The translations under genes and the position numbers were made by a program. Positions 8,191 to 28,428 of a DNA stretch of 31,412 bases are shown here, piece by piece; positions within the stretch are counted from its first letter, which is position 1, and every line of letters starts with the position of its first letter. The notes beneath the pieces were generated by a model that worked only from the letters and a program-made list of their open reading frames with translations, was not told where the DNA came from and searched no databases. Source of the stretch: Candidatus Limnocylindrales bacterium. GTDB lineage: Bacteria; Moduliflexota; Moduliflexia; Moduliflexales; JAUQPW01. The stretch spans positions 318,568 through 349,979 of the forward strand of contig DATMBG010000022.1 of assembly GCA_035559535.1 (NCBI GenBank). The letters run 5' to 3'.

Positions 8191-8292
8191 ATCGCATTCT
8201 ATGGCAGGTAAAGGCCTGGGACCTGGGGTTTTACCTATTTAAAGCTGTGGTCCCGGCTCCTATAAAAAAAGAAAAGTTTTTTCCTTTTTAGC

Positions 8293-8360
8293 TTGACAAA
8301 CCTCCCAATTGTGGATATATATTGATATACCAAAACATAGATATACTATATATAGTATAT
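8293..8360 (+). promoter_or_regulatory. nrdR-nrdJ promoter with two NrdR boxes
   Basis: TTGACA at 8293-8298 with TATATA 17 nt later. Box ATACTATATATAGTAT at 8343-8358 lies within a perfect 20-bp palindrome; a weaker box TGGATATATATTGATA at 8312-8327 is 31 bp upstream. Confidence 0.8.
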
Positions 8361-8388
8361 TTTTTGCCTTTATTCTTTATCCAAAGTT

Positions 8389-8919
8389 ATGAAATGTCCT
8401 GTTTGTGAAAAAGATGAAGATAAGGTGATTGACTCACGTTCGGCCAGGGGGGGGAGTGTCATTCGGCGACGAAGGGAATGCCTGAGTTGTGGTCATCGTT
8501 TTACCACGTATGAGACCATTGAACAGGCCCCTATTTATGTGATCAAAAAAGATGGACGTCGAGAACCCTTTAATAGAGAAAAACTGTTAAGTGGAATTTT
8601 GATGGCCTGTAAGAAGCGTCCGATTCCCATGGAAACTTTAGAAACCATTGTCCAGGAGATTGAGACCAAAATTCATAATAACTTTCCTATCGAAGTACCC
8701 AGTCGCGTTATCGGAGAAATGGTTATGGACAGGCTACAAGAGCTGGATGAAGTCGCCTATGTCCGATTTGCTTCTGTCTACCGACAGTTCAAGAATGCCC
8801 AGGAATTCATGGAGGAATCCGAAGCGGTACAAAAACGGCGAATACAAAAGGAAATGGATAAGTCCCAGTTATGGATATTTAATCAGAAGCCAGAAATCGG
8901 AAGTCAGAAGTCTTTTTGA
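8389..8919 (+). CDS. nrdR: Transcriptional repressor NrdR
   Basis: [29 protein letters not shown] zinc ribbon, ATP-cone ([11 protein letters not shown]) and [13 protein letters not shown]. Confidence 0.98.
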
Positions 8920-8940
8920 ATTCTGACTCCTGAGGTCTGA
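8881..8940. repeat. Heptamer tandem/inverted repeat overlapping the nrdR 3' end
   Basis: AATCAGA-AGCCAGA-AATCGGA-AGTCAGA followed by the inverted arm TCTGACT-CCTGAGG-TCTGA. Confidence 0.75.
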
Positions 8941-8963
8941 TGCTTGGGAGAAGAGGGGGTATC

Positions 8964-11741
8964 ATGGAGCCATTCAACAACGGTGCTAAAGGAAACCTAG
9001 AAATTCTGAATCGTTTTACTGCCGGGTCCGTTGGAGAGGGTTTAAAAATCGAAAGGTTTTTTACCAAACCTGGCATTCATCCCTTTGATGAACTGGAATG
9101 GGAACTTCGGACGGCTCTCATTACCAATGAAAGAGGAGAAAAAATCTTTGAACAAAAAGATGTGGAAGTTCCCAAAACCTGGTCTCAGACGGCTACCAAC
9201 GTTGTGGTCCAGAAGTATTTCCATGGTACCCTGGGGACCCCCCAGCGGGAACGAAGTGTGAAAACCTTGATCCACCGGGTAGCCCGTACCCTTACCGACT
9301 GGGGAATCCGGGATGGATATTTCGCTTCCGACGAAGATGCAGAGGCTTTTTACCAGGAACTATGTCATATTCTGGTCAATCAGAAAGCGGCCTTTAACAG
9401 CCCGGTATGGTTTAATGTGGGGATTGAACTCAAACCTCAGTGCTCGGCATGTTTTATAAATTCGGTGGAAGATACCATGGAATCCATTCTAGATCTGGCC
9501 AAGACCGAAGGGATGCTTTTCAAGTACGGTTCAGGAACCGGCACGAATTTCTCGACCCTCCGTTCTTCAAAGGAAAGGCTTTCGGGGGGTGGGATACCCA
9601 GTGGGCCTGTTTCCTTTATGCGCGGATATGATGCCTTCGCGGGGGTCATCAAAAGTGGAGGGAAAACCCGAAGGGCAGCCAAAATGGTGATCCTTAACAT
9701 CGACCACCCGGATATTGTAGAATTCATTAACTGTAAGGCCAACGAAGAAAAAAAGGCCTGGGCGCTTATTGAAGCAGGATACAGTGGAGATTTCAATGTT
9801 CCAGGAGGGGCGTACGATAGTGTTGCTTTCCAGAATGCTAATCACAGTGTTCGGGTTACCGATGAGTTCATGCGGGCGGTTTTAGAAGATAAAGAATGGA
9901 AGACCCGGGCGGTAACCACAGGCCAGATCATAGATACTTATAAGGCTCGGGATCTTATGCGGATGATTGTAGAATCAGCGTATATTTGCGGGGATCCAGG
10001 TTTACAATTTGATACCACCATCAACGACTGGCATACCTGCCCGAATACAGGCCGGATTAATGCCAGCAACCCCTGCTCGGAATATATGCATCTAGATGAT
10101 AGCGCCTGTAATCTCTCTTCCCTGAATCTCATGAAGTTCCGAAAGGACAACGGAGAATTCGATATCGAAGCTTTTCGCCATGCGGTAGATATCATGATCC
10201 TGGCCCAGGATATCATTGTAGATAATGCCAGCTATCCTACTCCGAAAATTGACAAAAATGCCAAAGCTTACCGGCAGTTAGGATTGGGGTATGCGAATCT
10301 GGGGGCTCTCCTGATGGCCCGTGGACTACCCTATGATAGCGATGAGGGGAGGGCTTATGCTGCGACGATTACGGCGCTTATGTGTGGGGAAGCCTATCGG
10401 ATGTCGTCGATCCTTGCAGGGCGAATCGGTCCCTTTGAAGGGTATGCCAAAAATCGGGAACCCATGCTCCGGGTTATCCAAAAACACCGGGAACATGTAG
10501 ACAAAATTGATCGGTCTTTGGTACCCCATGAACTCTGGATGGCCGCAAAAGAGGTCTGGGATGAGGCTTATCTCCTGGGGAGTGAGTATGGTTATCGAAA
10601 CTCCCAGGTTACTGTGCTGGCACCTACAGGAACCATCGCGTTCCTCATGGATTGTGATACTACCGGTATAGAACCGGATATCAGCCTGGTTAAATATAAA
10701 AAGTTGGTCGGTGGCGGACTCCTCAAAATCGTCAATCGAACGGTTCCAGAAGCCTTGAAAAAACTCGGATACTCTGCAAACCAGATCCAGGCCATCTTAC
10801 AATACATTGACCAAAACGATACCATTGAAGGGGCTCCGGAGCTAAAACCAGAACATCTGCCGGTTTTCGATTGTGCTTTCAAACCCTTAAAAGGAACCCG
10901 CTCCATCCACTATAACGGGCATATTAAAATGATGGCAGCCGTTCAACCTTTCATCAGCGGGGCTATCAGCAAAACGGTTAATATGCCCCATGAAGCAACC
11001 CCCGAAGACATCTGGCAGGTATACATGGATGCCTGGAAGCTAGGGTTAAAAGCCATTGCTATTTATCGGGATGGATGCAAGCGGACCCAGCCTTTAAGTA
11101 CTTCCAAGGGAAGTCCGGGGACTAAAACCCTGAGTCCTGAGCCAAAATTAAGTTCACAACTCACTGATTTCAAGCCGGTCCGTAGGCGGCTCCCGGATGA
11201 AAGGAAGGCGATCACCCATAAGTTCAGCGTTGCAGGCCATGAGGGGTATATCACAGTGGGTATGTATGAAGACGGGAAACCCGGAGAAATCTTTATTGTT
11301 ATGTCTAAGGAAGGATCTACCATCTCAGGGCTCATGGATGCCTTTGCGACCGCTATCTCCATAGCTCTCCAGTATGGGGTCCCCTTAGAAGTTTTGGTGA
11401 ACAAATTCAGTCATATGCGGTTCGAACCTTCTGGATATACAGGGAATAAGCAGATCCCCATTGCTAAATCCATCATGGACTACATCTTCCGATGGTTGGC
11501 CTTAAAGTTCTTACCGGAAAAGGCAGAAGCCCAGGTGTTAGAACCGTCTACTCCTAAATCCTTGAGCAACGGCACCCCAGGTTCTGAAACTCTAGATGAA
11601 GAACGTCGGGGTATACTGGAAAAACAGATTTTCCAAACTCAGGCCGATGCACCCCTTTGCAGTGATTGTGGTTGCTTGATGGTCAGAAACGGTTCCTGCT
11701 ACAAATGTCTGAATTGTGGAGCAACCAGCGGCTGTTCATAA
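8964..11741 (+). CDS. nrdJ: Class II (adenosylcobalamin-dependent) ribonucleotide reductase with C-terminal TSCPD domain and Zn ribbon
   Basis: Start moved to ATG 8964 (SD AGAGGGGG). Motifs FNSPVWFN, QCSACFI, SGGKTRRAAKM, NASNPCSEY, APTGTI, RRRLPDERKAITHKF and CSDC..CYKCLNCGATSGCS. Confidence 0.96.
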   Translation: MEPFNNGAKGNLEILNRFTAGSVGEGLKIERFFTKPGIHPFDELEWELRTALITNERGEKIFEQKDVEVPKTWSQTATNVVVQKYFHGTLGTPQRERSVKTLIHRVARTLTDWGIRDGYFASDEDAEAFYQELCHILVNQKAAFNSPVWFNVGIELKPQCSACFINSVEDTMESILDLAKTEGMLFKYGSGTGTNFSTLRSSKERLSGGGIPSGPVSFMRGYDAFAGVIKSGGKTRRAAKMVILNIDHPDIVEFINCKANEEKKAWALIEAGYSGDFNVPGGAYDSVAFQNANHSVRVTDEFMRAVLEDKEWKTRAVTTGQIIDTYKARDLMRMIVESAYICGDPGLQFDTTINDWHTCPNTGRINASNPCSEYMHLDDSACNLSSLNLMKFRKDNGEFDIEAFRHAVDIMILAQDIIVDNASYPTPKIDKNAKAYRQLGLGYANLGALLMARGLPYDSDEGRAYAATITALMCGEAYRMSSILAGRIGPFEGYAKNREPMLRVIQKHREHVDKIDRSLVPHELWMAAKEVWDEAYLLGSEYGYRNSQVTVLAPTGTIAFLMDCDTTGIEPDISLVKYKKLVGGGLLKIVNRTVPEALKKLGYSANQIQAILQYIDQNDTIEGAPELKPEHLPVFDCAFKPLKGTRSIHYNGHIKMMAAVQPFISGAISKTVNMPHEATPEDIWQVYMDAWKLGLKAIAIYRDGCKRTQPLSTSKGSPGTKTLSPEPKLSSQLTDFKPVRRRLPDERKAITHKFSVAGHEGYITVGMYEDGKPGEIFIVMSKEGSTISGLMDAFATAISIALQYGVPLEVLVNKFSHMRFEPSGYTGNKQIPIAKSIMDYIFRWLALKFLPEKAEAQVLEPSTPKSLSNGTPGSETLDEERRGILEKQIFQTQADAPLCSDCGCLMVRNGSCYKCLNCGATSGCS

Positions 11742-11777
11742 CTATTGATTTTATTTATCCCTGCTTGTGGGGGGCGC

Positions 11778-11843
11778 GTCCCTCTGTCCCTGCATCCCTT
11801 GGTCTCTGCGTCCCCCTGTCCCTCTATCCAAGGTCCCCGTGTC
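11778..11843. repeat. Degenerate octamer tandem repeat between convergent genes
   Basis: GTCCCTCT-GTCCCTGC-ATCCCTTG-GTCTCTGC-GTCCCCCT-GTCCCTCT-ATCCAAG-GTCCCCGT-GTC. Confidence 0.75.
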
Positions 11844-12617
11844 TTAATAGGATGGGTAGCCTAAAACCAGAATCTCCGTACTTGCCGGTAAAGTGGCCTT
11901 GCGAACCTCAAGGGTTGAACTTTTGACCTTACGTACCGGATACTTATCTCCCACAAAAGAAATAAAGTTGTCGATCATACCTTTAAAATCATACTGCATC
12001 GGAATAACCACCCGGGGTTTCAATTGTTCAATCACGGTTAAGACATCCCTATGACTCATTGTCCAGCTTCCATCTACTGAAATAAGAACAATATCAATTC
12101 TCCCTAAGGTTTTAATCTGTTCTTCGTTTAGAGGATGCCCCAAATTACCCAGGTGGGCAATACAGACCTCTCCTATTTCAAAGACAAAAATCGAATTAAC
12201 CCCCAACCCTCCCCCGGTCCTGGTATAAACATTAAAGATCCGTATATCCTTGATTTTCTCATCGATCTTATTCCATTCCCCTTGGGGATTTACCCCCAAG
12301 AGCTGAATGGGATTCCCTTTGACTGCTTTTGTATTATCGTGGGCATGATGAAGATTGCTCACTGTAACAATATCCGGAGGGGTATCCGGAACATAGGGTA
12401 GAAAAGGATCTGTCAAAACCGTTGTACCCTCTGGCGAAGTAATCAAAAAGCTAGAATGCCCCAGCCGTTGAATAAGCACAGAGTTTGCGTTTACCAGTGT
12501 ATAGTTAACCGGAATGACCCGGTCACGGACCATTTCTAAATCACAACCCGCAAACGCCTGGGGCAGAAAAGTCAGGGTGAAAATCAAAGAAATAAAAAAG
12601 AACAGGTTCTTTTCCAT
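11844..12617 (-). CDS. Secreted MBL-fold metallo-hydrolase-like protein (degenerate metal motifs)
   Basis: Signal-peptide-like N-terminus ending AFA; motifs LGHSSFLI, VLTDPF, TVSNLHHAH, CIAHLGNLGH and KPRVVIPMQY. Confidence 0.85.
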   Translation of the reverse strand: MEKNLFFFISLIFTLTFLPQAFAGCDLEMVRDRVIPVNYTLVNANSVLIQRLGHSSFLITSPEGTTVLTDPFLPYVPDTPPDIVTVSNLHHAHDNTKAVKGNPIQLLGVNPQGEWNKIDEKIKDIRIFNVYTRTGGGLGVNSIFVFEIGEVCIAHLGNLGHPLNEEQIKTLGRIDIVLISVDGSWTMSHRDVLTVIEQLKPRVVIPMQYDFKGMIDNFISFVGDKYPVRKVKSSTLEVRKATLPASTEILVLGYPSY

Positions 12618-13866: not shown

Positions 13867-14640
13867 ATGAAAACCGTGGTTGGAATTTTTACTTCACATT
13901 CCGATGCCAAACAGGCCGCCGAACGTTTACGATCGGTGGGCATCTCAAAGGATCGTATTAACTTTCTGATTCCGGGCTCTTCTGGAAAAGAGCCTCAGAC
14001 AATCCCAATTACAGAAACAGAACAACCTGGGATAGGCAAAGCTATCGGCAGTGTAGTTGGGGGGGCTGTAGGTGCCGGTGCAGGTCTGGCTATTCCGGCT
14101 TTCTTTTTACCGGGAGTCGGTCCCGTTATTGCCCTGGGATTTATTACCTCGGCTCTTTTAGGTACCGGTGGTGCCATTGGTGGAGCAATGGTCGGAGGGG
14201 CTTTGGAAGATTACCTTGCCCAGGGATTACCTAAAGACGAGTTATTTCTCTACGAAGATGCATTGAGACGAGGCCGTACCGTCTTGATGGCCCTTGTGGA
14301 AGAGGAGACCCAGGTGGAAACAGTCCGTGATATCCTCACACAGATCGGAGCAGAAAGTCTCGATTCGGCCCGTGAGGATTGGTGGATAGGACTCCGCCAT
14401 GCTGAAGAATTATCTTACACGGCCCAGGGTGGAAATTTTAAACGAGATGAACAGAGTTATCGGCGTGGTTTCGAAGCTGCTTTACATGTAGAAACCCGGG
14501 GTAAGCCTTATGAAGAGGTCCTAGACTATCTCCAGAAGCATGATCCAGGTCTGTATCAAGAAGAAGCTTTTCGCCGTGGATATGAACGTGGTCGGGCTTA
14601 TTATCAAGACTTAAGGGAAAGGTATCAAAGCAAGGATTAA
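13867..14640 (+). CDS. General stress protein-like membrane protein (YflT-like, Gly-rich TM hairpin)
   Basis: MKTVVGIFxSxxDAxxAAERL N-terminus, GAVGAGAG..PGVGPVIA Gly-rich segment and GLPKDE..YEDALRRG; SD AAGGAG. Confidence 0.75.
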   Translation: MKTVVGIFTSHSDAKQAAERLRSVGISKDRINFLIPGSSGKEPQTIPITETEQPGIGKAIGSVVGGAVGAGAGLAIPAFFLPGVGPVIALGFITSALLGTGGAIGGAMVGGALEDYLAQGLPKDELFLYEDALRRGRTVLMALVEEETQVETVRDILTQIGAESLDSAREDWWIGLRHAEELSYTAQGGNFKRDEQSYRRGFEAALHVETRGKPYEEVLDYLQKHDPGLYQEEAFRRGYERGRAYYQDLRERYQSKD

Positions 14641-15965: not shown

Positions 15966-17243
15966 CTAATAATCCAGCTCCATGGTTTCTAAGTTTCGGG
16001 CAAACGCCTGCAGGAATTGCGCTGCAGTACTTCCATCCACCGCTCGATAATCATAGGATAAAGAAGCGTACATCATCCAACGGATGCCGATCATATCCTC
16101 AACGACCACGGGTCGCTTCTTAACTGCACCAATTCCTAAAATCCCAATCTGGGGAGGTTGAATAAGGGGAGCATCTACCACAACCCCGAAAGCCCCGGCA
16201 TTGCTGACAGTAAAGGTTCCTCCCTGGAGTTCTTCAGGCTCGAGTTTCCTGGTTTGAGCCCGATAAATCAGATCCTCAATGGCTTTGGACATTCCCAATA
16301 AATTTAAGCCTTGAGCCTCTTTAATAAGAGGTACAACAACCCTATCTTCCAAAGGTACTGTAAAGCCGATATGGACAGATTCCTTTAAAGCAATCGTTCC
16401 GTCCTCTATAAGACCATTTAAGGTAGGAAATTGCTTGAGCGCCTTAACCGTGGCCACCAGGACAAAAGGTAGAAAGACCCACTCAGACGATCTTATGATC
16501 TTCTCTCCCTGGGTTTTTTCCAGGTGCCGGACGATCCGCGTCATATCTACTTCTATCAAAGCGGTTGCATGGGGTACGAGCTGGGGGCCTAAGACCCGGA
16601 GACGTGGGATCGCAGAGATACCAGGTTGTCTGAACCCTATTTCCCTTTCCTTACCTTCTGGTTTCTGCACTTCTTCTTCCAGAACCTGAGAGGGAGAAGG
16701 AATCGGCTCGGGTTTCGTTTCTTGAATCCTTCTTTTCGTTTTCAGGTCTGCCAGAATATCCTGCTTCATGATCCTACCACTCGGACCACTTCCCTGTTTC
16801 TGCTCGATTTCTTCTAGAGGGATCCCTTCCTTTTCGGCGATAGCCCGGGCCAGGGGAGAAATACGGGGACGTGGGGATGTCATTTCCACCTTTCTATCCT
16901 CCTGCCTTTGCACCTCTATCTCCTCCTGTCTCTCTATCTCTCCACGTCCCCGTGTCTCCGTCTCTCCGCGTTCTCCTGTCTCCGTGTCCCCACGTCCCTC
17001 CTCTACCTCTGTTTCAATCGAGGCGACTTCTGCCCCCACAGGGACCGTCTCTCCCTCGGCAAACAAGATTCGACTGAGTTTTCCTGTGGCCGGAGCCGGC
17101 ACTTCTGCATTTACTTTATCCGTACTCAGGACCAGAAGGACTTCATCCTTCTTTACAAAATCTCCCTCCTTTTTGTGCCACTCCAGAATCGTCCCTTCGA
17201 CTACACTTTCTCCCAATTGGGGGATTGTAACGCTGACTTTCAT
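15966..17243 (-). CDS. 2-oxoacid dehydrogenase E2 (SucB-like) protein with catalytic His replaced by Tyr
   Basis: Lipoyl domain (PQLGESVVEG, STDKV), peripheral-subunit-binding domain (ISPLARAIA..GSGPSGRI) and acyltransferase domain (GGTFTVSN), but SYDYRAVDG where DHRxxDG is expected. Confidence 0.9.
   Translation of the reverse strand: MKVSVTIPQLGESVVEGTILEWHKKEGDFVKKDEVLLVLSTDKVNAEVPAPATGKLSRILFAEGETVPVGAEVASIETEVEEGRGDTETGERGETETRGRGEIERQEEIEVQRQEDRKVEMTSPRPRISPLARAIAEKEGIPLEEIEQKQGSGPSGRIMKQDILADLKTKRRIQETKPEPIPSPSQVLEEEVQKPEGKEREIGFRQPGISAIPRLRVLGPQLVPHATALIEVDMTRIVRHLEKTQGEKIIRSSEWVFLPFVLVATVKALKQFPTLNGLIEDGTIALKESVHIGFTVPLEDRVVVPLIKEAQGLNLLGMSKAIEDLIYRAQTRKLEPEELQGGTFTVSNAGAFGVVVDAPLIQPPQIGILGIGAVKKRPVVVEDMIGIRWMMYASLSYDYRAVDGSTAAQFLQAFARNLETMELDY
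16865..16999. repeat. Octamer tandem/inverted repeat inside the E2 linker
   Basis: ACGTCCCC-GTGTCTCC-GTCTCTCC-GCGTTCTC-CTGTCTCC-GTGTCCCC-ACGTCCCT (16944-16999) with the inverted GGGGACGT-GGGGATGT (16865-16880); encodes GRGDTETGERGETETRGRGE. Confidence 0.75.
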
Positions 17244-17247
17244 TATG

Positions 17248-17316
17248 CATCGGAAGCCAGAAATCAGAGGTTATTCTAAATTCCCCACTCCGACTTCTGG
17301 CTTTTGATTCCTGATT
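17248..17316. repeat. Heptamer tandem/inverted repeat filling the kgd-E2 intergenic gap
   Basis: CATCGGA-AGCCAGA-AATCAGA followed by TCCGACT-TCTGGCT-TTTGATT-CCTGATT; same family as 8881-8940. Confidence 0.8.
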
Positions 17317-17319
17317 TCC

Positions 17320-20300
17320 CTATCCTTTAAGGGCCGTTTCAATAATTTGTCTTTGTTCCTCCTGATGAATCTTTAGAGAGCCGGTTGCAGGGCTGGCACT
17401 TTCTGGACGACCCACATAGATGGGTTCTGCATCTCTGAGTTTAGGGAAGAAGGATAAATCTTGCCGGAGTAATTTGCACAGGCGAGGACTTATATAACCC
17501 CAGGCACCCATATTTTGAGGCTCTTCCTGTACCCAGAAAAGCTCTTGCAGATTGGGATACGTTCGTAAGAGTTCTTGAAGCCGGGCTTCAGGGAAAGGAT
17601 AGAGTTGCTCCAGACGTAGCAGAGCCATGTGACGGATTTGACGTTTTTCTCGCTCTTGTAAGAGCTCGTAATAAACTTTACCATTACACAGAATAACCCG
17701 GGTTACCGGCTCTTTAGAATTCAATAGGGTATCATCCAGGATTTCCTGAAAATGACCCTTTATCATCTCCTCAAGGGTTGAAACTGCCCGTGGGTGTCGC
17801 AACAGACTCTTTGGGGTGGCTATAACGAGGGGTTTACAGGTTCCATCATAAACCTGACGACGCAGGAGGTGGAAATACTGGGCCGGGGTTGTACAATTAC
17901 AGACCTGAATATTATCCTTGGCGCAGAGTTGTAAAAATCGTTCAAGTCGAGCAGAAGAATGCTCTGGCCCCTGTCCTTCATAGCCATGGGGAAGTAACAG
18001 GACAATATCACTGGACTGACCCCATTTTTCTTCGGAACTGGCCAGGAATTGATCGATAATGACCTGAGCTCCGTTGGCAAAATCACCAAATTGGGCTTCC
18101 CAAAGCACCAGAGTGGAAGGATCCGCAACGCTATATCCGTATTCAAAACCGAGTACGGCTGCTTCAGAAAGAAGACTATCAAACACATCAAACTTTGCCT
18201 GGGTAGGTTCGAGATGGTTCAAGGGGACATATTCCTGTTCGGTTTCATAGTCATAGAGAATGGCATGGCGCTGGCTAAAAGTACCCCGGGCGCTATCTTC
18301 TCCGCTCAACCTTACGTGGATTCCTTCGGTCAGCAAACTACCAAACGCCAGGGCCTCGGCAAAGGCCCAATCTATAGGAGCCTGAGGATTGGTGAGAATG
18401 GCTCTCCGTTTTTCCAGGAACCCATGAAGTTTGGGATGCAGCTTGAAATCCGAGGGAAGTGTAGTCATTCGCTCTGTAATCAGGATTAATCGATCTTTCT
18501 CGACCCCGGTATCTGAAAGTTCTTTAGGCTTTGGTTTTGCCACGTCTATTAAAGGATTCTTGGATAGACGAGGGGTCGTTGTGGGCTTGAGGGACTTGAC
18601 CACTTCCAGGGCCTGTTCAAAGCGTTTGTGAAAATCTGCCGCCATTTCTTCAGCTTCCTCCGGCTTCAATTCGTTATCTCGAAGTAGCTGTTCGGTATAA
18701 ATCTGCCGGACCGAGGGATGCTCCTGGATTTTTTTATAAAGCACAGGGTGGGTGTAACTGGGTTCATCCACTTCGCTGTGACCGTGGCGACGATAGCAAA
18801 TAAGGTCAATAACTACATCGGTTGCAAACTTTTGCCGATAGGCAAACGCCAACTTTACCACATGGACCGTTGCTTCCGGATCGTCCCCGTTAACATGGAA
18901 TATGGGTACCTGCAACATTTTAGCAATGTCGGTTGCATAGAGCGTAGAACGGGCCTGCTCCGGAGAGGTGGTAAAACCTATTTGATTATTGATGACAATA
19001 TGAACGGTACCCCCCGTACGATATCCTCGAAGCTGAGAGAGGTTAAGCGTTTCAGCCACAATGCCCTGACCGGCAAAGGCAGCATCCCCATGGATTAGGA
19101 CCGGGATGACCTTTTTCCTGTTGGTATCGCCGATCCGCTCCTGTTTAGCCCGGGTCATTCCTTCTACGACCGGATTGACGGCTTCCAGATGACTTGGGTT
19201 TGAGGCCAGCGAAAGGTTGATTTTCTTACCGGTGGGAGTTTCATAGAATCCGGTAGCTCCCAGGTGATACTTGACATCTCCGGAACCTTGAGGTGCGGTC
19301 GGGTCTATATATTCTTCGAACTCCGAAAAGATTTTTTCATAGGATTTACCGATAATATTGGCCAATACATTTAATCGTCCCCGATGGGCCATCCCCATCA
19401 CGACTTCCACCACTCCCTGTTCCGCGGCTTCGTCTAATAAGGCATCGAGCATAGGAATCAGGGTCTCAGCCCCTTCCAGGGAAAAGCGCTTATAACCCAC
19501 ATATCGGGCATGGAGGAATTTCTCAAAGGCCTCGGCGGCATTCAATCTTAAGAGGATTCGGCGCTTGGCTTCACGGGAGAGCTGGGTTTTATTACGGCAA
19601 CTCTCCATCCGCTCCTGAAGCCACAGCTTTTGCTCCGGGTTTTGGATATTTCTATACTCCACACCGATTTTCCCACAGTAAGTTTCCCGCAAGGTATCCA
19701 AAATATCCCGCAGGGTAGCAACCGACTGGCCTCCCAATCCTCCCGTAATAAACTTTCGATCAAGATCCCAAATGGTCAATCCATACTGAGCCGGATCCAA
19801 CTCGGGATGATAGTGAGGCTCATAACCTAAAGGATTGAGATCTGCAAGTAAATGCCCTCGGACTCGATAAGCATTGATAAGCTGTAACACCCGGGCCTGT
19901 TTTTCTATAGCTTCAAGGTTACGGGTTAAATCCAGGAGCTCTTTATTCTCATCACGTTCCCAGTGGACAGGTTCATGGGGTAGCTTAAGATCCGTAAAGA
20001 TTTGTTCATAGAAGCCATCTTCTCCCTGGAGCAATTGATGAATTCGAGCCAGATAGGAACCCGATTCGGCCCCTTGAATGATCCGGTGATCATAGGTGCT
20101 GGTAAGGGTCATGACTTTACTGACCCCCAACTGAGAGAGGGTCTCCTCGGACATCCCTTGATACTCCGCCGGATAATCAATCGCACCCGTTGCGATAATG
20201 GCTCCCTGTCCTGGCATAAGCCTTGGGACCGAAGCTACCGTACCTATCATTCCAGGATTGGTTAAACTAATGGTCGTGTCCTGAAAATCCTGGAGTGTCA

Positions 20301-20988
20301 ACTTACCCGAGCGAGCCCGCTGAACCACATCGTTATACGCCTTCAGAAACTCAAGGAAGTTCATTTTATGAGCGTTCTTGATATTAGGTACCAGTAAAAC
20401 CCTGGAGCCATCTTTTTGCTCAACATCTATTGCCAGCCCCAGATTGACCTCGGTCCTCTGAACCCTATGGGGTTCTCCGTTTAAGACCATAAAGGCCGAG
20501 TTCATATTGGGATAATCCTTCAGGGCTTTAACCATCGCCCAGGCAATAATATGGGTATAAGAAGCCTTCCCCTGTCCCATCAAACTCAGGTGCTGATTGA
20601 TGATCCGCCTATTTTCTTCCAGTACTTTAACCGGTATCACACGAACAGACGTAGCCGTCGGCAAGGTTAAACTGGCCTCCATATTCTCTGCAATCTTGGC
20701 CATAACTCCCCGAAGGGCCTTGATTTCTCCCGTAGGCAACGAACGATAAGCCGTGGATAGTTCCTCTTTTTCCGGCTTCCGGCTTCTAACCTCCGGTCTT
20801 TTGTCCTCTCCAGGGGCTCCTCCATTACCTGCCTGAAAATCCCGTTCATAACCCGCAAAAAACCGCCGCCAGCTCTCACTTACCGCTGAAGGGTCCTTCA
20901 GGTACTGCTCATAAAGATCCTGGACAAAGTCGGAGTTAAATCCAAACTGCATTATTTTCAAGTCTTTATCCGACATTTTCTCTTTCAT
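17320..20988 (-). CDS. kgd: Multifunctional 2-oxoglutarate dehydrogenase Kgd/OdhA (E2o succinyltransferase fused to E1o)
   Basis: 1222 aa. FGFNSDFV..LYEQYLKDPSAVSESW N-terminal helix; E2-like domain with TSTYDHRIIQGAESG; E1o motifs YRVRGH, GMAHRGRLN, ThDP motif HGDAAFAGQG..NN, WEAQFGDFANGAQ and GQGPEHSSAR; SD AGGAGGT. Confidence 0.95.
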   Translation of the reverse strand: MKEKMSDKDLKIMQFGFNSDFVQDLYEQYLKDPSAVSESWRRFFAGYERDFQAGNGGAPGEDKRPEVRSRKPEKEELSTAYRSLPTGEIKALRGVMAKIAENMEASLTLPTATSVRVIPVKVLEENRRIINQHLSLMGQGKASYTHIIAWAMVKALKDYPNMNSAFMVLNGEPHRVQRTEVNLGLAIDVEQKDGSRVLLVPNIKNAHKMNFLEFLKAYNDVVQRARSGKLTLQDFQDTTISLTNPGMIGTVASVPRLMPGQGAIIATGAIDYPAEYQGMSEETLSQLGVSKVMTLTSTYDHRIIQGAESGSYLARIHQLLQGEDGFYEQIFTDLKLPHEPVHWERDENKELLDLTRNLEAIEKQARVLQLINAYRVRGHLLADLNPLGYEPHYHPELDPAQYGLTIWDLDRKFITGGLGGQSVATLRDILDTLRETYCGKIGVEYRNIQNPEQKLWLQERMESCRNKTQLSREAKRRILLRLNAAEAFEKFLHARYVGYKRFSLEGAETLIPMLDALLDEAAEQGVVEVVMGMAHRGRLNVLANIIGKSYEKIFSEFEEYIDPTAPQGSGDVKYHLGATGFYETPTGKKINLSLASNPSHLEAVNPVVEGMTRAKQERIGDTNRKKVIPVLIHGDAAFAGQGIVAETLNLSQLRGYRTGGTVHIVINNQIGFTTSPEQARSTLYATDIAKMLQVPIFHVNGDDPEATVHVVKLAFAYRQKFATDVVIDLICYRRHGHSEVDEPSYTHPVLYKKIQEHPSVRQIYTEQLLRDNELKPEEAEEMAADFHKRFEQALEVVKSLKPTTTPRLSKNPLIDVAKPKPKELSDTGVEKDRLILITERMTTLPSDFKLHPKLHGFLEKRRAILTNPQAPIDWAFAEALAFGSLLTEGIHVRLSGEDSARGTFSQRHAILYDYETEQEYVPLNHLEPTQAKFDVFDSLLSEAAVLGFEYGYSVADPSTLVLWEAQFGDFANGAQVIIDQFLASSEEKWGQSSDIVLLLPHGYEGQGPEHSSARLERFLQLCAKDNIQVCNCTTPAQYFHLLRRQVYDGTCKPLVIATPKSLLRHPRAVSTLEEMIKGHFQEILDDTLLNSKEPVTRVILCNGKVYYELLQEREKRQIRHMALLRLEQLYPFPEARLQELLRTYPNLQELFWVQEEPQNMGAWGYISPRLCKLLRQDLSFFPKLRDAEPIYVGRPESASPATGSLKIHQEEQRQIIETALKG

Positions 20989-21436: not shown

Positions 21437-22852
21437 TCATGAGGAAGCAGTCTTCCACAGATTTCCTGCCAGACAGAGAACGGCTAACCATCCGATGATC
21501 CCTGAAAAGGCAAAGGCAGTTTTAGCGACCCACACACTTGCGGGAACTGCTTCAAATAGAGCTGAAGGGAGAAGCAAAGGAAATATACGGCAGATGGTGG
21601 CTACAGTGCCCAACCAGAAGGTCAAATCTACCAGTTGTGTGCTGGCTACTCGCTTCTTCTTAATAAAGCCCGGAATCATACGTACGGACATACCGAAAAT
21701 CAAGTGGGTAATGAAGCCTAACAAATACAGATGTCGTATCACATCATTCCCGATACTAACCGGGCGTCCCCACAGGGTAGCAATCCCCAGAAGGATTTCA
21801 AAGAAGGCCCCCACGACAAGCCATACATAAGCGGCATAGACCGGTCTCTCAAATCGACCAAATTCCCCGTAATCCGGCATACCCGGTCGGGTGGGTCGGC
21901 GGTCTGGGGCTGGTTGTAAAGCCCGTTGACCTGTCCAGGGTTCCCGAAAGCGGGTGAGAATATCCAGCTTCCAAACAAACCAGAAGATAATCCCTCCCTT
22001 TAGGAGCATCCCTACCTGGGATAGGTAGAAAGACGCCCGGGGTATCAGATCTGAAAGGGGAGGAAAAGCAGGAACAGTTTGTAAGCAAAAGGCAAAAAGG
22101 TAGGCATAAGCGACCCTACAAACAGGCCAATCGATAGGAGCAAGGCGGAAATAAAGCGGAAACGTACGAATCGAAAAGGCAAAGGCGACCGGAAGAAGAA
22201 CCAGACTAACAAATACCTGGATGGAAAATTCGTTCCAGGCCGGATTTATCATACTCCCTTTGCTCAAAACCATCTGGATAAGCAAAATAAGGTTGAGGCT
22301 GGCATAAAAAAGCCAGCCAACCAGCATCATACCAAAGTAGGGTTTTACCGATGTCAAGGCCGGACGTTGGTCCACCCCCTTTACCCCGTAAAGGGTTTTA
22401 CTTAACAAAAATAAATAGGCAAAAATACCCGACCCTTCTAACAATCCTGAGCCGACAACCATTCCGCCGAAAAGAACAAACAACGTGCTTCCGGTTACAT
22501 AAGGTAAAATTACATGGCCGATGCTCCGAAGCAAAAGCCCACCTCCCATCAGCCAAAGGATGCGGTGGATCCACCGGGGTTGAGAAATGGGGACTCCGGC
22601 CAGCCGGGGAATAAAATGGAGGCTAATTCCAAGGATAAATAACCCGGCCCAGCCAACCAACTGGAGATGGCCGTGGGTTTGAATAAAACTGTGATAGCCT
22701 TTTCCCAGTGGAAAGTCATAACCAATGACAAAAGTTAAATGGGCACCGATGTCAAACCCTGCAAATAAAGCAGCAGACAGCGCCACCCAGATATAGCCTA
22801 TTTGAAACTCTGCCTGTTTACTTCTCGATTCAGGAATAGACTCGTTTAACAC
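21437..22852 (-). CDS. NnrS-like polytopic membrane protein
   Basis: Many TM segments with the His motifs HGHLQLVGWAGLFILG..IPRL and HLYLLGFITHLIFGMSVRMIP; GTG start. Confidence 0.65.
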   Translation of the reverse strand: MLNESIPESRSKQAEFQIGYIWVALSAALFAGFDIGAHLTFVIGYDFPLGKGYHSFIQTHGHLQLVGWAGLFILGISLHFIPRLAGVPISQPRWIHRILWLMGGGLLLRSIGHVILPYVTGSTLFVLFGGMVVGSGLLEGSGIFAYLFLLSKTLYGVKGVDQRPALTSVKPYFGMMLVGWLFYASLNLILLIQMVLSKGSMINPAWNEFSIQVFVSLVLLPVAFAFSIRTFPLYFRLAPIDWPVCRVAYAYLFAFCLQTVPAFPPLSDLIPRASFYLSQVGMLLKGGIIFWFVWKLDILTRFREPWTGQRALQPAPDRRPTRPGMPDYGEFGRFERPVYAAYVWLVVGAFFEILLGIATLWGRPVSIGNDVIRHLYLLGFITHLIFGMSVRMIPGFIKKKRVASTQLVDLTFWLGTVATICRIFPLLLPSALFEAVPASVWVAKTAFAFSGIIGWLAVLCLAGNLWKTASS

Positions 22853-23080: not shown

Positions 23081-23096
23081 GTGAAAGCAGATTCAC
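23081..23096. promoter_or_regulatory. Putative TetR operator 1 (GTGAA-N6-TTCAC)
   Basis: GTGAAAGCAGATTCAC just upstream of the tetR SD. Confidence 0.65.
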
Positions 23097-23110
23097 AAAA
23101 AGGAGAAGAT

Positions 23111-23710
23111 GTGGGTATAGAAAAACTGAGGACAGAAATCAGGAGAGAGCAAATCGTTCAGGCGGCCCTGAACCTGATTGCCAGCCATGGCATGAGGAAG
23201 TTAAGCATAGCCGGGGTAGCTCGCCGGGTTGGTCTGGTTCCCTCTGCCATTTACCGCCACTTTAAGAATAAGGACGAGGTATTGGATGCGACTCTGGAAT
23301 TTATCCGAAATAGACTCCTGGACAACGTCAAGGAGGTCTTTGAAGAAACTCCAGACCCGCTGGAGCGTCTCAGGCGATTGTTGATGCGCCATGTCAGACT
23401 GATCCGAGAGAACCAGGCCATCCCGCTGGTTATCTTTTCTGAAGAGGTCTACCACGGTTCCCCGGAGAGAAAAGCCAGAGTTCGTGGAATTATGCAGGGG
23501 TATCTGGATAGGGTGGGGGACATTGTTCGCCAGGGCCAGCGGGAAGGGCGTATACGTTCCGAGATCGATCCGAAAACAATCTCTCTGATGTTTATAGGTC
23601 TGTTCCAACCGGCGGCGATCTTCTGGCATATAAGTGATGGAGGGTTCGATGTAACAAAGCATACTGAGAAAGCCTGGAAGGTTTTCAGTAAAGCGATTCA
23701 GAGAGGTTAA
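23111..23710 (+). CDS. TetR/AcrR family transcriptional regulator
   Basis: RREQIVQAA..SIAGVARRVGLVPSAIYRHFKNKDEVL HTH; start moved to GTG 23111 after SD AGGAG. Confidence 0.95.
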   Translation: MGIEKLRTEIRREQIVQAALNLIASHGMRKLSIAGVARRVGLVPSAIYRHFKNKDEVLDATLEFIRNRLLDNVKEVFEETPDPLERLRRLLMRHVRLIRENQAIPLVIFSEEVYHGSPERKARVRGIMQGYLDRVGDIVRQGQREGRIRSEIDPKTISLMFIGLFQPAAIFWHISDGGFDVTKHTEKAWKVFSKAIQRG

Positions 23711-23724
23711 TTTTTGTAATTTCT

Positions 23725-23740
23725 GTGAATTCCTATTCAC
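23725..23740. promoter_or_regulatory. Putative TetR operator 2 (GTGAA-N6-TTCAC)
   Basis: tGTGAATTCCTATTCACa between tetR and the membrane fusion protein gene. Confidence 0.65.
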
Positions 23741-23849
23741 ATAAAATGGAATAGGAAAGATTACTACTCCCTTTTTTTAATGAAACCCTTCAGGCAGAAC
23801 AATTTTTTAGTTCTGGATACCAGTCGGTATTTGCAGAGGAGGGGCAGCC

Positions 23850-25025
23850 ATGAAGAATAAGAAAAAGCTGATCATCTTGTTCTCCATCCTGATAATCGCC
23901 GTCCTGCTGATCTACGAGTATATCCAGGGTAGATCCGGCAAGGAGCCGAACATCCTTCGGGTTTCCGGTAATATTGAAATTACAGACGCTGAAATAAGTT
24001 TCAAAATTGCAGGCCGGGTGGAAGAGCGTCTGGTCTCAGAAGGTGAGAGGGTCCAGGCGGGTCAGGTCGTGGCCCGATTAGATCATACGGAGCTGGTTCA
24101 TCAGGTTGCTCTGCGTAAAGCAGAAGTTGAAGTAGCCCGTGCAGCCCTTGCCGAACTCGAAGCAGGACCTCGACCGGAAGAAATTGCTCAGGCCGAGGCT
24201 GTGGTCCGGAAGGCACAGGCACAACTCGACGAACTGCTGGCCGGATCAAGGCCCCAGGATATAGCCGTTGCAGAGGCAGCGGTACAACGGGCGAAGGTTG
24301 AAGTAAACCGTTTAAAAGCAGACTATGAGCGGCGTTATAAACTCTACCAGGAGGGAATCCTATCCACCAACGAATATGAAGCGGCACAAACGGCTTATAA
24401 AGTAGCTACTGCCCAGCTAAAAGAAGCAGAAGAGCGTTTGAAACTCCTCAAAGAGGGTCCCCGAAAAGAGCAAATCGAACAAGCCCGTGCAGCGTTGATG
24501 CAGGCCAAAGAGACGCTTACTCTGGTCAAAAAAGGTCCTCGTAAAGAGACCATCGATCAAGCCCGTGCCCGCCTGGACCAGGCTAACCAGGCCCTGGCAA
24601 TGGCAGAAACCCAGTTAGACTATGCAACCCTGGTCTCACCGATCTCCGGGGTTGTGCTGTCTAAGAACGTCGAGCCGGGAGAATATGTTGCTCCCGGAAC
24701 ACCGGTTGTTACCCTTGGTAATCTGGATAATGTGTGGTTACGGGCCTATATCAACGAAACCGACCTGGGTCGCGTGAAAGTAGGCCAACGGGTGCAGGTG
24801 ACCACCGATACCTATCCAGGTAAAGTATATGAAGGACACATTTCCTTCATTGCTTCGCAGGCAGAGTTTACACCCAAGAATGTGCAGACCGAGAAGGAGC
24901 GCGTGAAGCTTGTTTATCGCATTAAAATCCATATCCCCAATCCCAATATGGAGCTGAAACCTGGAATGCCCGCCGACGCAGATATTCTGATCTCCAGTAC
25001 TGACAGGGAGGAGGTTTTAAAATGA
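23850..25025 (+). CDS. HlyD-family membrane fusion protein (YbhG-like)
   Basis: N-terminal TM, SGNIE, lipoyl-like halves, long coiled coil with GPRxEEIxQA repeats, AEFTPKNVQT and LKPGMPAD. Confidence 0.93.
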   Translation: MKNKKKLIILFSILIIAVLLIYEYIQGRSGKEPNILRVSGNIEITDAEISFKIAGRVEERLVSEGERVQAGQVVARLDHTELVHQVALRKAEVEVARAALAELEAGPRPEEIAQAEAVVRKAQAQLDELLAGSRPQDIAVAEAAVQRAKVEVNRLKADYERRYKLYQEGILSTNEYEAAQTAYKVATAQLKEAEERLKLLKEGPRKEQIEQARAALMQAKETLTLVKKGPRKETIDQARARLDQANQALAMAETQLDYATLVSPISGVVLSKNVEPGEYVAPGTPVVTLGNLDNVWLRAYINETDLGRVKVGQRVQVTTDTYPGKVYEGHISFIASQAEFTPKNVQTEKERVKLVYRIKIHIPNPNMELKPGMPADADILISSTDREEVLK

Positions 25026-25171
25026 GGAAACCTGAACTACGTCAAGATGCAGCAGCTAAAGAATGGGTTATGAGGGTCGTAAGCCATGCCAGGCGGTTAT
25101 CTGTGTTTGCAGTAAGGACGCCGACATGCCCAAGCCGATGGATATTGGAGGTATATCATGGAAGCTATTAA
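25022..25171 (+). CDS. 49-aa ORF, possible gene remnant (N-terminus resembles GalT-family N-termini)
   Basis: SD AGGAGG, ATGA overlap with the upstream stop, reads MRKPELRQDAAAKEWVMR.., and its end overlaps the next start. Confidence 0.3.
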   Translation: MRKPELRQDAAAKEWVMRVVSHARRLSVFAVRTPTCPSRWILEVYHGSY

Positions 25172-26081
25172 GATCAGCCGTCTTACAAAGACCTTTGGGG
25201 ACCTACGAGCGGTTGATGACCTTACTCTTGGTGTATCTCAAGGAGAAATCTTCGGACTTGTGGGCCCGGACGGGGCCGGGAAGACCACTACCCTGCGACT
25301 CCTCACGGCGATTCTGAGTCCTACTTCGGGAGATGCCTGGATAATGGGCAAACATATCGTTCGGGAAGCAGAAGCTCTTAAGGAAGAGATCGGTTACCTG
25401 AGCCAGCGCTTTGGACTCTACCCGGACCTGACGGTAATGGAAAATATCCATTTCTATGCAGATATCTATGGTGTACCACGCAGGAGTCGAGACTCAAAGA
25501 TTGATAGGTTACTCTCTTTCAGTAATTTAACCCCTTTCAAAAACCGTCTGGCAGGAAATTTATCCGGTGGAATGAAGCAAAAGCTTGGCCTGATTTGTGC
25601 GCTGATCCATACCCCAAAGGTACTCTTCCTGGATGAGCCGACCAACGGGGTGGATCCCCTTTCACGCCGGGACTTCTGGCGCATCCTGTATCAACTACTT
25701 CGTGAGAAAGTTACCATCTTTATTTCCACCGCTTATCTCGATGAAGCCGAGCGCTGCAATCGGGTGGGTCTCATCCATAAAGGCAGGCTTCTTGCCTGTG
25801 GAACCCCCCTGGAGGTGAAGAAGTTGATGCAGGGAACCATCCTGGAGGTTCGCCCCTCAGAGCCCCACAAAGCTACAACTCTCCTGCGCCAACGGTTTGG
25901 AGCCGACCTGGTAAGCCTGTTCGGTGATCGTGTTCACGTTATAACTCAGGAGCCAGACCGGACCCTGGTTCAGGTGGAAGGAATCCTCACCGAGGCTGGT
26001 CTTAAAGTCCTGGACACGCAATCTACCGAACCGACGCTTGAGGATGTGTTTATCTCGGTTCTTGCCAGGGATAAAGGGTGA
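25158..26081 (+). CDS. ABC transporter ATP-binding protein (YbhF N-half-like)
   Basis: GPDGAGKTT, LSGGMKQK, FLDEPT and C-terminal PTLEDVF; Y at the H-loop position (STAY). Confidence 0.95.
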   Translation: MEAIKISRLTKTFGDLRAVDDLTLGVSQGEIFGLVGPDGAGKTTTLRLLTAILSPTSGDAWIMGKHIVREAEALKEEIGYLSQRFGLYPDLTVMENIHFYADIYGVPRRSRDSKIDRLLSFSNLTPFKNRLAGNLSGGMKQKLGLICALIHTPKVLFLDEPTNGVDPLSRRDFWRILYQLLREKVTIFISTAYLDEAERCNRVGLIHKGRLLACGTPLEVKKLMQGTILEVRPSEPHKATTLLRQRFGADLVSLFGDRVHVITQEPDRTLVQVEGILTEAGLKVLDTQSTEPTLEDVFISVLARDKG

Positions 26082-26092
26082 AGGGGAAGGGG

Positions 26093-26208
26093 GAAGTGTG
26101 GGGGGTATGGAGGTAGGAGAGTATGGAGGTTTGGGTAAGTTGCCTCCACTCCTCCACTTCCCCACTTCCCCGCTTCCCCACTCCCATACTTCCATACCCC
26201 CACACTTC
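26093..26208. repeat. Octamer tandem/inverted repeat hairpin between the two ABC ATPase genes
   Basis: GAAGTGTGGGGGGTATGGAGGTAGGAGAGTATGG followed by CTCCACTC-CTCCACTT-CCCCACTT-CCCCGCTT-CCCCACTC-CCATACTT-CCATACCC-CCACACTT-C; the outer arms are complementary. Confidence 0.85.
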
Positions 26209-26227
26209 AATAACAGAAAAGAGGACC

Positions 26228-28426: not shown

Positions 28427-28428
28427 AT

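Follow-up and report, generated by a model that had tools for sequence, protein, structure and literature searches.

A Kgd-type E2o-E1o fusion gene paired with an E2-like gene that has Tyr in place of the catalytic His: a possible further 2-oxoglutarate dehydrogenase architecture

In the window (the whole stretch of DNA analysed here, 31,412 nucleotides), a gene for a Kgd/OdhA-type E2o-E1o fusion is followed on the same strand by a gene for an E2-like protein, referred to here as E2Y, in which Tyr occupies the position of the catalytic His and the first helix of the canonical core (helix H1) is not recognizable. The reading that we favour, with a probability of about 0.6, is that E2Y serves as a dedicated lipoyl carrier and as a dock for both E3 and Kgd, with little or no transferase activity, and that succinyl transfer occurs inside Kgd. 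Observations of four kinds lead to this reading, namely the anatomy of the two genes, the persistence among relatives of the Tyr and of the adjacency of the two genes, the lost motifs and the pattern of selection. The features concerned, all on the minus strand, are as follows.

17320..20988, minus: kgd/odhA-type gene, E2o-E1o fusion, 1222 aa (ORF, Pfam and NCBIfam)
20842..20946, minus: N-terminal motif 2-oxogl_dehyd_N (PF16078), Kgd residues 15-49, predicted docking element for an E2-like core (Pfam)
20026..20721, minus: acyltransferase (E2o) domain, Kgd residues 90-321 (PF00198 at 1.8e-50)
17320..19959, minus: ThDP-dependent E1o part, Kgd residues 344-1222 and stop codon (PF00676, PF02779, PF16870)
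17244..17319, minus: spacer of 76 nt between kgd and the E2-like gene (sequence)
15966..17243, minus: E2-like gene, E2Y, 425 aa, with lipoyl domain, linker, peripheral-subunit binding domain (PSBD), linker and degenerate CAT-like core (ORF and Pfam)
17016..17231, minus: lipoyl domain, E2Y residues 5-76 (PF00364 at 3e-19)
16869..17003, minus: charged linker, E2Y residues 81-125 (24-bp and 8-bp tandem repeats, length varying among relatives)
16752..16868, minus: peripheral-subunit (E3/E1) binding domain, PSBD, E2Y residues 126-164 (PF02817 at 1.5e-11)
16572..16646, minus: site of the canonical N-terminal strand and helix H1 (R-x-x-I-A-x-x-M-x-x-S), E2Y residues 200-224, degenerate and with Pro213
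15978..16580, minus: CAT-like core, E2Y residues 222-422 (PF00198, 195.9 bits, cut-off 23)
16047..16049, minus: TAT codon of Tyr399, at the catalytic His position (sequence)

The product of the fusion gene matches NF008907, the NCBIfam equivalog for multifunctional Kgd, with 1818 bits (cut-off 878). It is also the sole match above cut-off in the genome to TIGR00239 (1149 bits), and hence the only E1o. Its Pfam domain order is PF16078-PF00198-PF00676-PF02779-PF16870, and a Pfam scan of all 1222 aa found no lipoyl domain. [quoted passage not shown] In the acyltransferase domain, the canonical helix H1 (LRGVMAKIAENMEAS) is intact and the motif TYDHRIIQG is present, with the codon for His301 at 20086-20088 on the minus strand. 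This His is invariant in an alignment of 20 fused homologues, and the domain is the proposed place of succinyl transfer. Pfam and the sequence thus bear out the first-pass annotation, which had described a 1222-aa E1o with its own acyltransferase domain, that same motif and no lipoyl domain. The nearest named relatives of Kgd are from Bryobacterales and Pyrinomonadaceae. Fusions of the Kgd type are common in Acidobacteriota and occur also in Gemmatimonadales, which goes beyond the 'few isolated cases' that appear in print.

E2Y begins 76 nt downstream of kgd. In scans of this spacer, neither promoter-like nor terminator-like sites were found on the minus strand, the counts being at the level of shuffled sequence, and the two genes are likely co-transcribed. 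The lipoyl domain retains the lipoyl-lysine, K43, in the STDKV turn (codon 17115-17117), and this residue is invariant in a 28-sequence alignment. With the PF00364 and PF02817 matches, both the lipoyl Lys and the binding domain that were originally read from this gene are accounted for, and we infer that E2Y is lipoylated and binds E3. The linker between these domains contains arrays identified by Tandem Repeats Finder (16883-16998) and has pLDDT values below 50 in the AF2 model. In a contig from one sequencing run (X3), 83 letters stand in place of 53 within this linker.

The core scores well above the PF00198 cut-off, but the match begins only at profile position 26 of 232. Read on the minus strand, the sequence tcc tat gat tat cga gcg gtg gat gga encodes SYDYRAVDG, which confirms both the motif and the TAT codon given in the first-pass annotation. 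Among 162 distinct E2 cores, the corresponding column contains His in 154, Tyr in 7 and Asp in 1, and all seven Tyr belong to the E2Y clade. Ser347, Asp398, Arg400 and the GGTFT motif are retained in E2Y, with S347 and D398 found in all members of the clade, while several near-invariant positions are altered (A295T, G301R, L302V and N362Q). E2Y also has Leu (L241) at a column where 45 of 64 canonical cores have Arg and 19 do not; mapped by hand from the alignment, this column corresponds to the Arg that contacts the CoA 3'-phosphate (Arg480 of the C. glutamicum protein, its role as given in the available part of the source).

The helix H1 motif had been called unrecognizable, and column counts and a pattern search agree. 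Among the 64 canonical cores, the helix H1 columns hold R in 62, I in 52, A in 46, M or L in 61 and S in 50. At the same columns, the Tyr clade shows I/V/G, mixed residues, P (6/7), R and G/Q/S. A regular expression for the motif matched 111 of the 112 next-nearest proteins and none of P0001, P0005, P0006 and P0007. The AF2 model of E2Y lacks the strand and helix at residues 176-225, with no helix and pLDDT of 33-38 at residues 200-224. A control protein, P0051, modelled with the same alignment, has a strand at 194-198 and a helix at 201-213. E2Y also falls below every NCBIfam E2 equivalog cut-off (PRK05704, 278.7 against 449; SucB_Actino, 275.6 against 423; sucB, 265.3 against 379). That the core is degenerate is argued as much by the lost helix H1 and the other changed near-invariant positions as by the Tyr.

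A shortened C-terminal 'knob', which would have pointed to lost contacts between trimers, was considered and rejected. The tail of E2Y after E419 is 6 residues long and is not an outlier, because the tails of canonical cores are 4-10 residues long and six of the 64 have 6 or fewer. The terminal helix seen in the AF2 control is absent from the E2Y model, and this was given no weight.

The Tyr is present in all 7 distinct clade sequences, down to about 56 % identity. These include a genome of the same genus, where the motif is SYDYRVVDG, and P0002-P0006, which are 88-56 % identical to E2Y. A sister sequence, P0007, keeps the His yet lacks the helix H1 motif. With P0007 included, the E2Y clade comprises 8 distinct sequences. 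It is recovered as monophyletic with SH-aLRT 100, has a stem 0.95 changes per column long and branches among bacterial E2s. It is small, as a search seeded with P0007 found no further members and an exhaustive search of representatives recovered only P0006 near E2Y (266 bits, the next match having 185 bits). Contigs from three runs of other studies (X1, X3 and X7) cover bases 16047-16049 with no listed difference; because the runs were compared as contigs and not as raw reads, TAT is confirmed at the contig level. No RNA data set was listed as containing the gene. A CAT (His) codon in reads or relatives would have pointed to an error or a private mutation. Retention of the Tyr in the same-genus genome, in P0002-P0006 and in the contigs from other studies indicates that it is neither.

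At all three loci whose gene order was read, kgd is followed by E2Y, and in each the E2 gene beside kgd carries the Tyr. These loci are the window, a locus from the same genus (L048) and a more distant locus (L078) in which the E2 is 56 % identical and the N-terminal part of Kgd is 73 % identical; the downstream neighbours of L048 and L078 are as in the window. For three further kgd/E2Y pairs, the longest contigs of both proteins are equal in size. Among 30 kgd loci from named genomes, an E2 gene was found in the flanks only at the same-genus locus, and the two genes thus stay together in this lineage alone. Of the 80 loci recovered by a metagenome scan with patterns drawn from the lipoyl domain of the clade alignment, L078 was the single one with a clade member. 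The phylum to which the organism belongs, with nine genomes in the collection examined, places it outside the Actinomycetota.

Elsewhere in the genome are five other E2 genes, each separate and all keeping the His. Immediately next to three of these lies a weak match to the E1o model (20-32 bits), and we infer that all five serve other complexes. The genome also has several E1 genes of the heterotetramer type. The genes for Lpd (two matches above cut-off), LipA and LipB lie at other sites, unlinked to kgd and E2Y.

Selection on each domain was assessed as dN/dS between two species of the genus (G000 and G001), a single genome pair. In E2Y, no non-synonymous changes were found in the 80 codons of the lipoyl domain or the 40 codons of the PSBD (dN/dS 0 for both), while the linker (residues 81-125) gave 0.41 and the core 0.159, with 14 amino-acid differences. 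The values for Kgd were 0.031 for the E2o domain and 0.074 for the E1o part. In the same genome pair, four canonical E2 paralogues had core dN/dS values of 0.023, 0.050, 0.073 and 0.010, and the value for the E2Y core is 2-16 times these. Constraint on E2Y is therefore strongest on the lipoyl domain and PSBD, and the core is relaxed yet under purifying selection. A dN/dS of 0.159 fits a scaffold, and would equally fit a slower enzyme.

Contact between the two proteins was predicted by co-folding Kgd residues 1-90 with E2Y residues 120-425, using alignments built for this analysis. The pair scored 0.62 in three runs and the best of three controls scored 0.00, and the controls were thus passed. 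The same mark was attained in 58 of 80 solved complexes, as against 2 of 110 mismatched pairs. The runs share at least 42 % of contacts, with partner pLDDT of at least 56. The predicted contact residues of Kgd are 14-18, 20-22, 25, 37, 39-40 and 43, and those of E2Y are 301-304, 336-340 and 362-363. However, we note that a single copy of the core was co-folded, leaving exposed faces that are buried in the trimer, and that the result could reflect memory of solved E1o-E2o complexes. The physical contact is therefore a prediction of the model. By a hand count, canonical-conserved columns changed in the clade make up 4 of 5 inside the predicted interface and 10 of 32 outside it, a comparison that carries no evidential weight because the numbers are small and it was made post hoc.

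Three other explanations were weighed against the favoured one. An error of assembly or sequencing at the Tyr codon, or decay of E2Y into a pseudogene, is so improbable that it was rejected, since intact ORFs with the Tyr occur in seven distinct sequences from several sources, the contigs of other studies agree at this codon and every domain is under purifying selection. It is also quite improbable that E2Y has no special tie to Kgd, being instead a lipoyl protein of general use, or an E2 that serves another complex, and a neighbour of kgd by chance. The specificity of the PSBD is not readable from sequence, the contact with Kgd is a predicted one and the heterotetramer-type E1 genes could supply other partners, but adjacency and gene order persist where the E2s are only 56 % identical, the other five E2s lie elsewhere (three of them beside weak E1-family matches), the co-fold passed its controls and an E2 flanks kgd only in the same genus among the 30 loci.

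The remaining explanation is that E2Y has kept its succinyltransferase activity and is a divergent E2o whose Tyr399 forms a hydrogen bond to the tetrahedral intermediate. There would then be two transferase sites, or the domain in Kgd would be redundant. This bears on a premise of the first-pass annotation, namely that the His is the general base of E2 enzymes, which is contested for E2o. According to the accessible text of PMC8146983, the H375A substitution in Escherichia coli E2o lowers kcat/Km only 54-fold, and a role for the His as hydrogen-bond donor was proposed. Tyr399 may accordingly leave residual or even useful activity, and by analogy its hydroxyl might partly fill the hydrogen-bonding role of the His. 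The Ser, the Asp and most of the core motifs are kept, the core is under purifying selection and the Tyr is strict in 7 of 7 sequences with no drift, such that it could be in use. Against this, E2Y has lost helix H1 including the Arg present in nearly all canonical cores, has Leu at the hand-mapped CoA 3'-phosphate Arg column and changes at further near-invariant positions, scores below all of the E2 equivalog cut-offs, and has a core that is evolving faster than those of the four canonical paralogues and the Kgd domain. We regard a working E2Y transferase as unlikely, and the inactivity of E2Y as no more than probable, given that the H375A enzyme loses only 54-fold. The proposal that a pseudo-E2 acts as carrier and scaffold while transfer happens inside Kgd gains from Kgd being the only E1o, from its acyltransferase domain retaining helix H1, the His and a low dN/dS, and from the selection pattern and co-fold of E2Y.

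If E2Y is such a carrier and dock, Kgd and E2Y would together make up a 2-oxoglutarate dehydrogenase that is self-contained and represents a fourth architecture. The E1o part of Kgd would decarboxylate 2-oxoglutarate and succinylate a lipoyl-lysine, the acceptor being on the neighbouring, dedicated E2Y and not on the PDH E2 as in Actinobacteria. The succinyl group would pass to CoA within the intact acyltransferase domain of Kgd, and the dihydrolipoyl arm would be re-oxidized by the unlinked Lpd docked on the PSBD of E2Y. The E2Y core would be kept mainly for oligomerization and for docking of the N-terminal motif of Kgd. A fuller version, offered tentatively and at somewhat less than even odds, is that E2Y arose independently in bacteria as an equivalent of mitochondrial E3BP, being a dead E2 paralogue in which what was once the active-site face now docks the N-terminal hairpin of Kgd. 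This would give a stand-alone ODH with Lpd in which the arm and the transferase site are on different proteins and there is no catalytic E2 core; helix H1 would have been lost first, as it already is in P0007, and the His afterwards.

Each of the known systems shares some of these properties. OdhA/Kgd of Corynebacterium and Mycobacterium is, like Kgd here, an E2o-E1o fusion with PF16078, an intact acyltransferase His and no lipoyl domain, and its lipoyl groups, as far as the consulted part of the literature goes, must be supplied in trans. However, the actinobacterial OdhA borrows from a catalytically active PDH E2 (AceF/DlaT), whereas here a dedicated E2-like gene adjoins kgd and its product differs from that PDH E2 in having Tyr for His and no helix H1. 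The best sequence match of E2Y among solved structures is an E2p chain of 553 aa (9y7v, 1.2e-78). In the eukaryotic E3BP (PDHX, protein X), the lipoyl-PSBD-core topology without the transferase His is as in E2Y, and the available part of one report (10.1101/2022.04.20.488913) describes it as an E2 paralogue recognized by the missing His and used for binding, not catalysis. E3BP belongs to PDH, in or on a catalytic E2p core, whereas the predicted partner of E2Y is the Kgd fusion and there is probably no separate catalytic E2o. The origin of E2Y is independent of eukaryotic E3BP, because E2Y branches among bacterial E2s and its match to human protein X (6h60, 4.8e-31) is far weaker than that to the bacterial E2p.

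A full LB-PS-E2-E1 fusion is reported from Thermoleophilia in the portion of Bruch et al. that is available, and L074 is an example (1430 aa, with two lipoyl stretches, PSBD, E2 domain and E1o). As is proposed for Kgd and E2Y, the fused E2o-E1o has its own lipoyl arm and PSBD and does not borrow from PDH, but the arm is in one chain and PF16078 has been replaced, whereas here a separate E2Y has a degenerate core and Kgd keeps PF16078. The overall reaction and domain repertoire of Kgd and E2Y are also those of canonical SucA and SucB. The other family of the same phylum has this form, with a SucA of 915-937 aa and, after it, an E2 that reads SYDHRIVDG in G007. In this genus, by comparison, E1o carries the transferase domain, and neither the His nor helix H1 is left in the separate E2. 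In the literature searched, no description of a bacterial pseudo-E2 or of a non-actinobacterial OdhA was found, the papers recovered being on actinobacteria and E3BP, although the homologue table in Fig. 5a of Bruch et al. may list cases.

In textbooks, the 2-oxoacid dehydrogenase complexes are machines with a catalytic E2 core at their centre. Two exceptions are known, namely OdhA of Actinobacteria, which relies on a borrowed PDH E2, and E3BP of eukaryotes, which is a dead E2 paralogue, and this locus joins both ideas outside the Actinobacteria. If the favoured reading is correct, it would be a natural system with lipoyl carriage, E3 docking and acyl transfer on different polypeptides. Such a system would be of use in studying what purposes an E2 core serves besides catalysis, how cores are recognized by the N-termini of E1o, and how pseudo-enzymes arise once gene fusion makes a domain redundant.

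The 2-oxoglutarate dehydrogenase genes of this stretch and their neighbours are as follows.

17320-20988, minus strand: Kgd, ORF of 1222 aa (ORF reading)
15966-17243, minus strand: E2Y, the E2-like neighbour, ORF of 425 aa (ORF reading), beginning 76 nt past the Kgd ORF
21437-22852, minus strand: 471-aa multi-pass membrane protein immediately upstream of kgd
13867-14640, plus strand: 257-aa ORF with a Gly-rich hydrophobic middle; a homologue holds a position near kgd-E2Y in L078, a fetched locus
659-12617 and 23081-31411: ordinary neighbours, namely seryl-tRNA synthetase, ClpB-type AAA+ chaperone, SDH-type ClpP-like protease with rhomboid, NrdR with class II ribonucleotide reductase carrying a TSCPD domain, hemerythrin, and TetR regulator with HlyD and ABC-2 transporter
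Window 3' end: ADP-forming acyl-CoA synthetase-like gene, truncated

For the ORFs at 13867-14640 and 21437-22852, Pfam gave no family with an E-value of 1e-5 or lower. Kgd, the sole E1o of the genome, is a Kgd/OdhA-type fusion (NCBIfam NF008907, 1818 bits versus a cut-off of 878) with Pfam matches to PF16078 (residues 15-49), PF00198 (90-321), PF00676, PF02779 and PF16870, and the Pfam search found no lipoyl domain in it. In the acyltransferase domain of Kgd, helix H1 is canonical (LRGVMAKIAENMEAS) and the motif TYDHRIIQG is present. [quoted passage not shown] E2Y falls under the cut-off of every E2 equivalog model in NCBIfam. In the DNA the E2Y motif is SYDYRAVDG, with TAT at 16047-16049. The first-pass annotation, which described a Kgd fusion adjacent to an E2 with Tyr in place of His, is borne out as written by the ORFs, Pfam, NCBIfam and the DNA. 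Tandem repeats with periods of 24 and 8 (window 16883-16998) encode the charged stretch that links the E2Y lipoyl domain to the PSBD (residues about 82-120); in the related contig from sequencing run X3, 83 letters stand here in place of 53.

Seven proteins of the genome match PF00198, namely Kgd, E2Y and five more E2s, all five of which keep the His. The E2Y orthologue in G001, a genome of the same genus, is 92% identical and has SYDYRVVDG. A search of 5.8 billion clustered proteins gave P0002-P0007 as the sole close relatives. Tyr is present in P0002-P0006 (88, 85, 83, 56 and 56% identical to E2Y), and P0007 (52%) alone of the close relatives keeps His (SYDHRVIEG); the next matches are canonical E2s, at most 43% identical. 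When 1.84 billion representatives were searched exhaustively with HMMER, a single protein came out near E2Y (P0006, 266 bits) before scores fell to 185 bits, and a search seeded with P0007 found no extra members. When 162 distinct E2 cores were aligned, the His column contained 154 H, 7 Y and 1 D, and all seven Y belong to the E2Y clade, a coherent group but a rare one, with 8 distinct sequences.

The TAT codon was also confirmed at contig level. Logan contigs of X1 (probably the source run; depth 28.9) are identical to the window sequence, and the codon is covered by contigs from X3 (about 94% identical, different study) and X7 (third study), for which the listed differences, in contigs rather than raw reads, are at 16042 and 16044 with none at 16047-16049. 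An error or private mutation is ruled out by P0002-P0006, G001 and the contigs from other studies. Over 15966-17243, a run labelled mine metagenome yielded pieces at least 99% identical, and runs with the label hot springs metagenome yielded a contig of about 94% identity (runs X2 and X3); these labels are only a hint of habitat. P0408 (452 aa, from the exhaustive HMMER search) is also an E2, with a full-length core, a PSBD and a lipoyl domain, and has Gln at the His position (SYDQRIIDG). Since its Pfam core match starts from profile position 4, it has helix H1, and it is an independent example of a His-less E2.

By its sequence, the E2Y core is degenerate beyond its Tyr. Across 64 canonical cores, no two sharing 70% identity or more, the H1 columns hold R in 62, I in 52, A in 46, M or L in 61 and S in 50. 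The corresponding residues of the Tyr clade are I/V/G, a mixture, Pro (in 6 of 7), R, and G/Q/S. A regular expression for the H1 motif matched 111 of the 112 next-nearest proteins, the single miss being a 224-aa fragment, and none of the clade proteins P0001, P0005, P0006 and P0007. The P0007 Pfam core match likewise begins late (profile position 28). Other positions with at least 80% conservation also differ in the clade (A295 to T or I; G301-L302 to RV, KV or GS; N362 to Q or H), several of them in P0007 too. [quoted passage not shown] Ser347, Asp398, Arg400 and GGTFT are kept. AlphaFold2 (28-sequence alignment) modelled the E2Y lipoyl domain, PSBD and core confidently but built neither strand nor helix over 176-225, with pLDDT 33-38 there (low confidence being no proof of disorder). 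With canonical P0051 placed first in the same 28 sequences, a strand (194-198) and a helix (201-213) appear.

The seven Tyr sequences and P0007 form one clade (SH-aLRT 100, stem 0.95 changes per column) in a tree made by a quick method and including a spurious ORF row (L078_1562_2545). The clade lies outside the phylum's canonical E2o group, and deeper placement lacks resolution. As P0007 is sister to all Tyr sequences, one His-to-Tyr change is enough, and loss of helix H1 preceded it. Between the window's genome and G001 (one genome pair, Nei-Gojobori 1986 method), dN/dS is 0 for both the E2Y lipoyl domain (80 codons) and PSBD (40 codons), 0.41 and 0.60 for the linkers (0.41 for the repeat-encoded one), 0.031 for the Kgd E2o domain and 0.074 for its E1o part. 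The arm and dock are therefore the most constrained parts of E2Y. Its core, at 0.159 versus 0.023, 0.050, 0.073 and 0.010 for those of four canonical E2 paralogues (lipoyl domains 0.04-0.19), appears, on this one pair, retained yet relaxed.

The kgd-then-E2 order recurs in relatives, namely in L048 (same genus) and L078, where kgd, a Tyr-E2 and a phosphoribosyltransferase are followed by a further neighbour that the window also has (identity to the window 56% for E2, 73% for the N-terminal part of Kgd). For three further E2-Kgd pairs, the longest contigs of both proteins are equal in size, which suggests, but does not prove, that each pair is on one contig. Among nine genomes of the phylum, both of this genus have the fusion, and two of the other family have plain SucA, followed in one (G007) by an E2 with SYDHRIVDG. 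In the flanks (up to 10 kb, some shorter) of 30 kgd loci from named genomes (Bryobacterales, Pyrinomonadaceae, Gemmatimonadales and Actinomycetota), no E2 gene was found except at the same-genus locus. Kgd-type fusions of 46-62% identity are carried by Bryobacterales, Bryobacteraceae, Pyrinomonadaceae, other Acidobacteriota and one Gemmatimonadales MAG, with no E2 gene in the fetched flanks of L049-L057, L070 and L072. The spread of E2o-E1o fusions outside Actinobacteria exceeds the "few isolated cases" that the literature mentions.

Bruch et al. report that the PF16078 N-terminus matters for the interaction of OdhA with E2, and the human E1o N-terminus is reported to sit on the E2o linker-core region (PMC8146983). 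For Kgd 1-90 co-folded with E2Y 120-425, three runs gave a score of 0.62, versus 0.00 for the best of three controls; the mark used was reached by 58/80 solved complexes and 2/110 mismatched pairs, and a pass is possible through likeness to solved complexes. At least 42% of contacts agree between runs (partner pLDDT at least 56), and join Kgd 14-25 and 37-43 to E2Y 298, 301-304, 332-340, 345 and 362-363. A single core copy was used, so faces buried in the trimer are exposed. The model supports, but does not show, binding of the Kgd N-terminus to the E2Y core.

We propose that Kgd would decarboxylate 2-oxoglutarate and succinylate the E2Y lipoyl-lysine K43, that the succinyl group would pass to CoA through Kgd's own acyltransferase domain, and that the arm would be re-oxidised by an unlinked Lpd docked on the E2Y PSBD, the E2Y core serving in assembly and docking. 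The genome has two Lpd matches above the cut-off, LipA and LipB. We give this whole mechanism a probability of about 0.6. The main rival, that E2Y is still an acyl transferase, is unlikely. It draws on E. coli E2o H375A, for which a loss of only 54-fold and a hydrogen-bond role for the His are reported (PMC8146983), a role that by analogy the Tyr hydroxyl might fill.

In its working, the proposed Kgd-E2Y system would resemble the actinobacterial OdhA/AceF pair, but the proposed lipoyl donor at this locus would be a dedicated one, with a degenerate core. The eukaryotic E3-binding protein, described as catalytically inactive and told from E2 by the missing histidine (10.1101/2022.04.20.488913), is likewise an E2 paralogue without His; unlike it, E2Y would be part of ODH, and it is of independent origin. 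The third solution on record is the full LB-PS-E2-E1 fusion, reported for Thermoleophilia (Bruch et al.). An example is the 1430-aa Actinomycetota protein at L074:7878-12167 (plus strand), with two lipoyl stretches, PSBD, E2 core and E1o in a single chain. No account of a pseudo-E2 partnered with Kgd in any bacterium turned up in the literature searched, which took in the text of Bruch et al. The kgd-E2Y system is directly testable.
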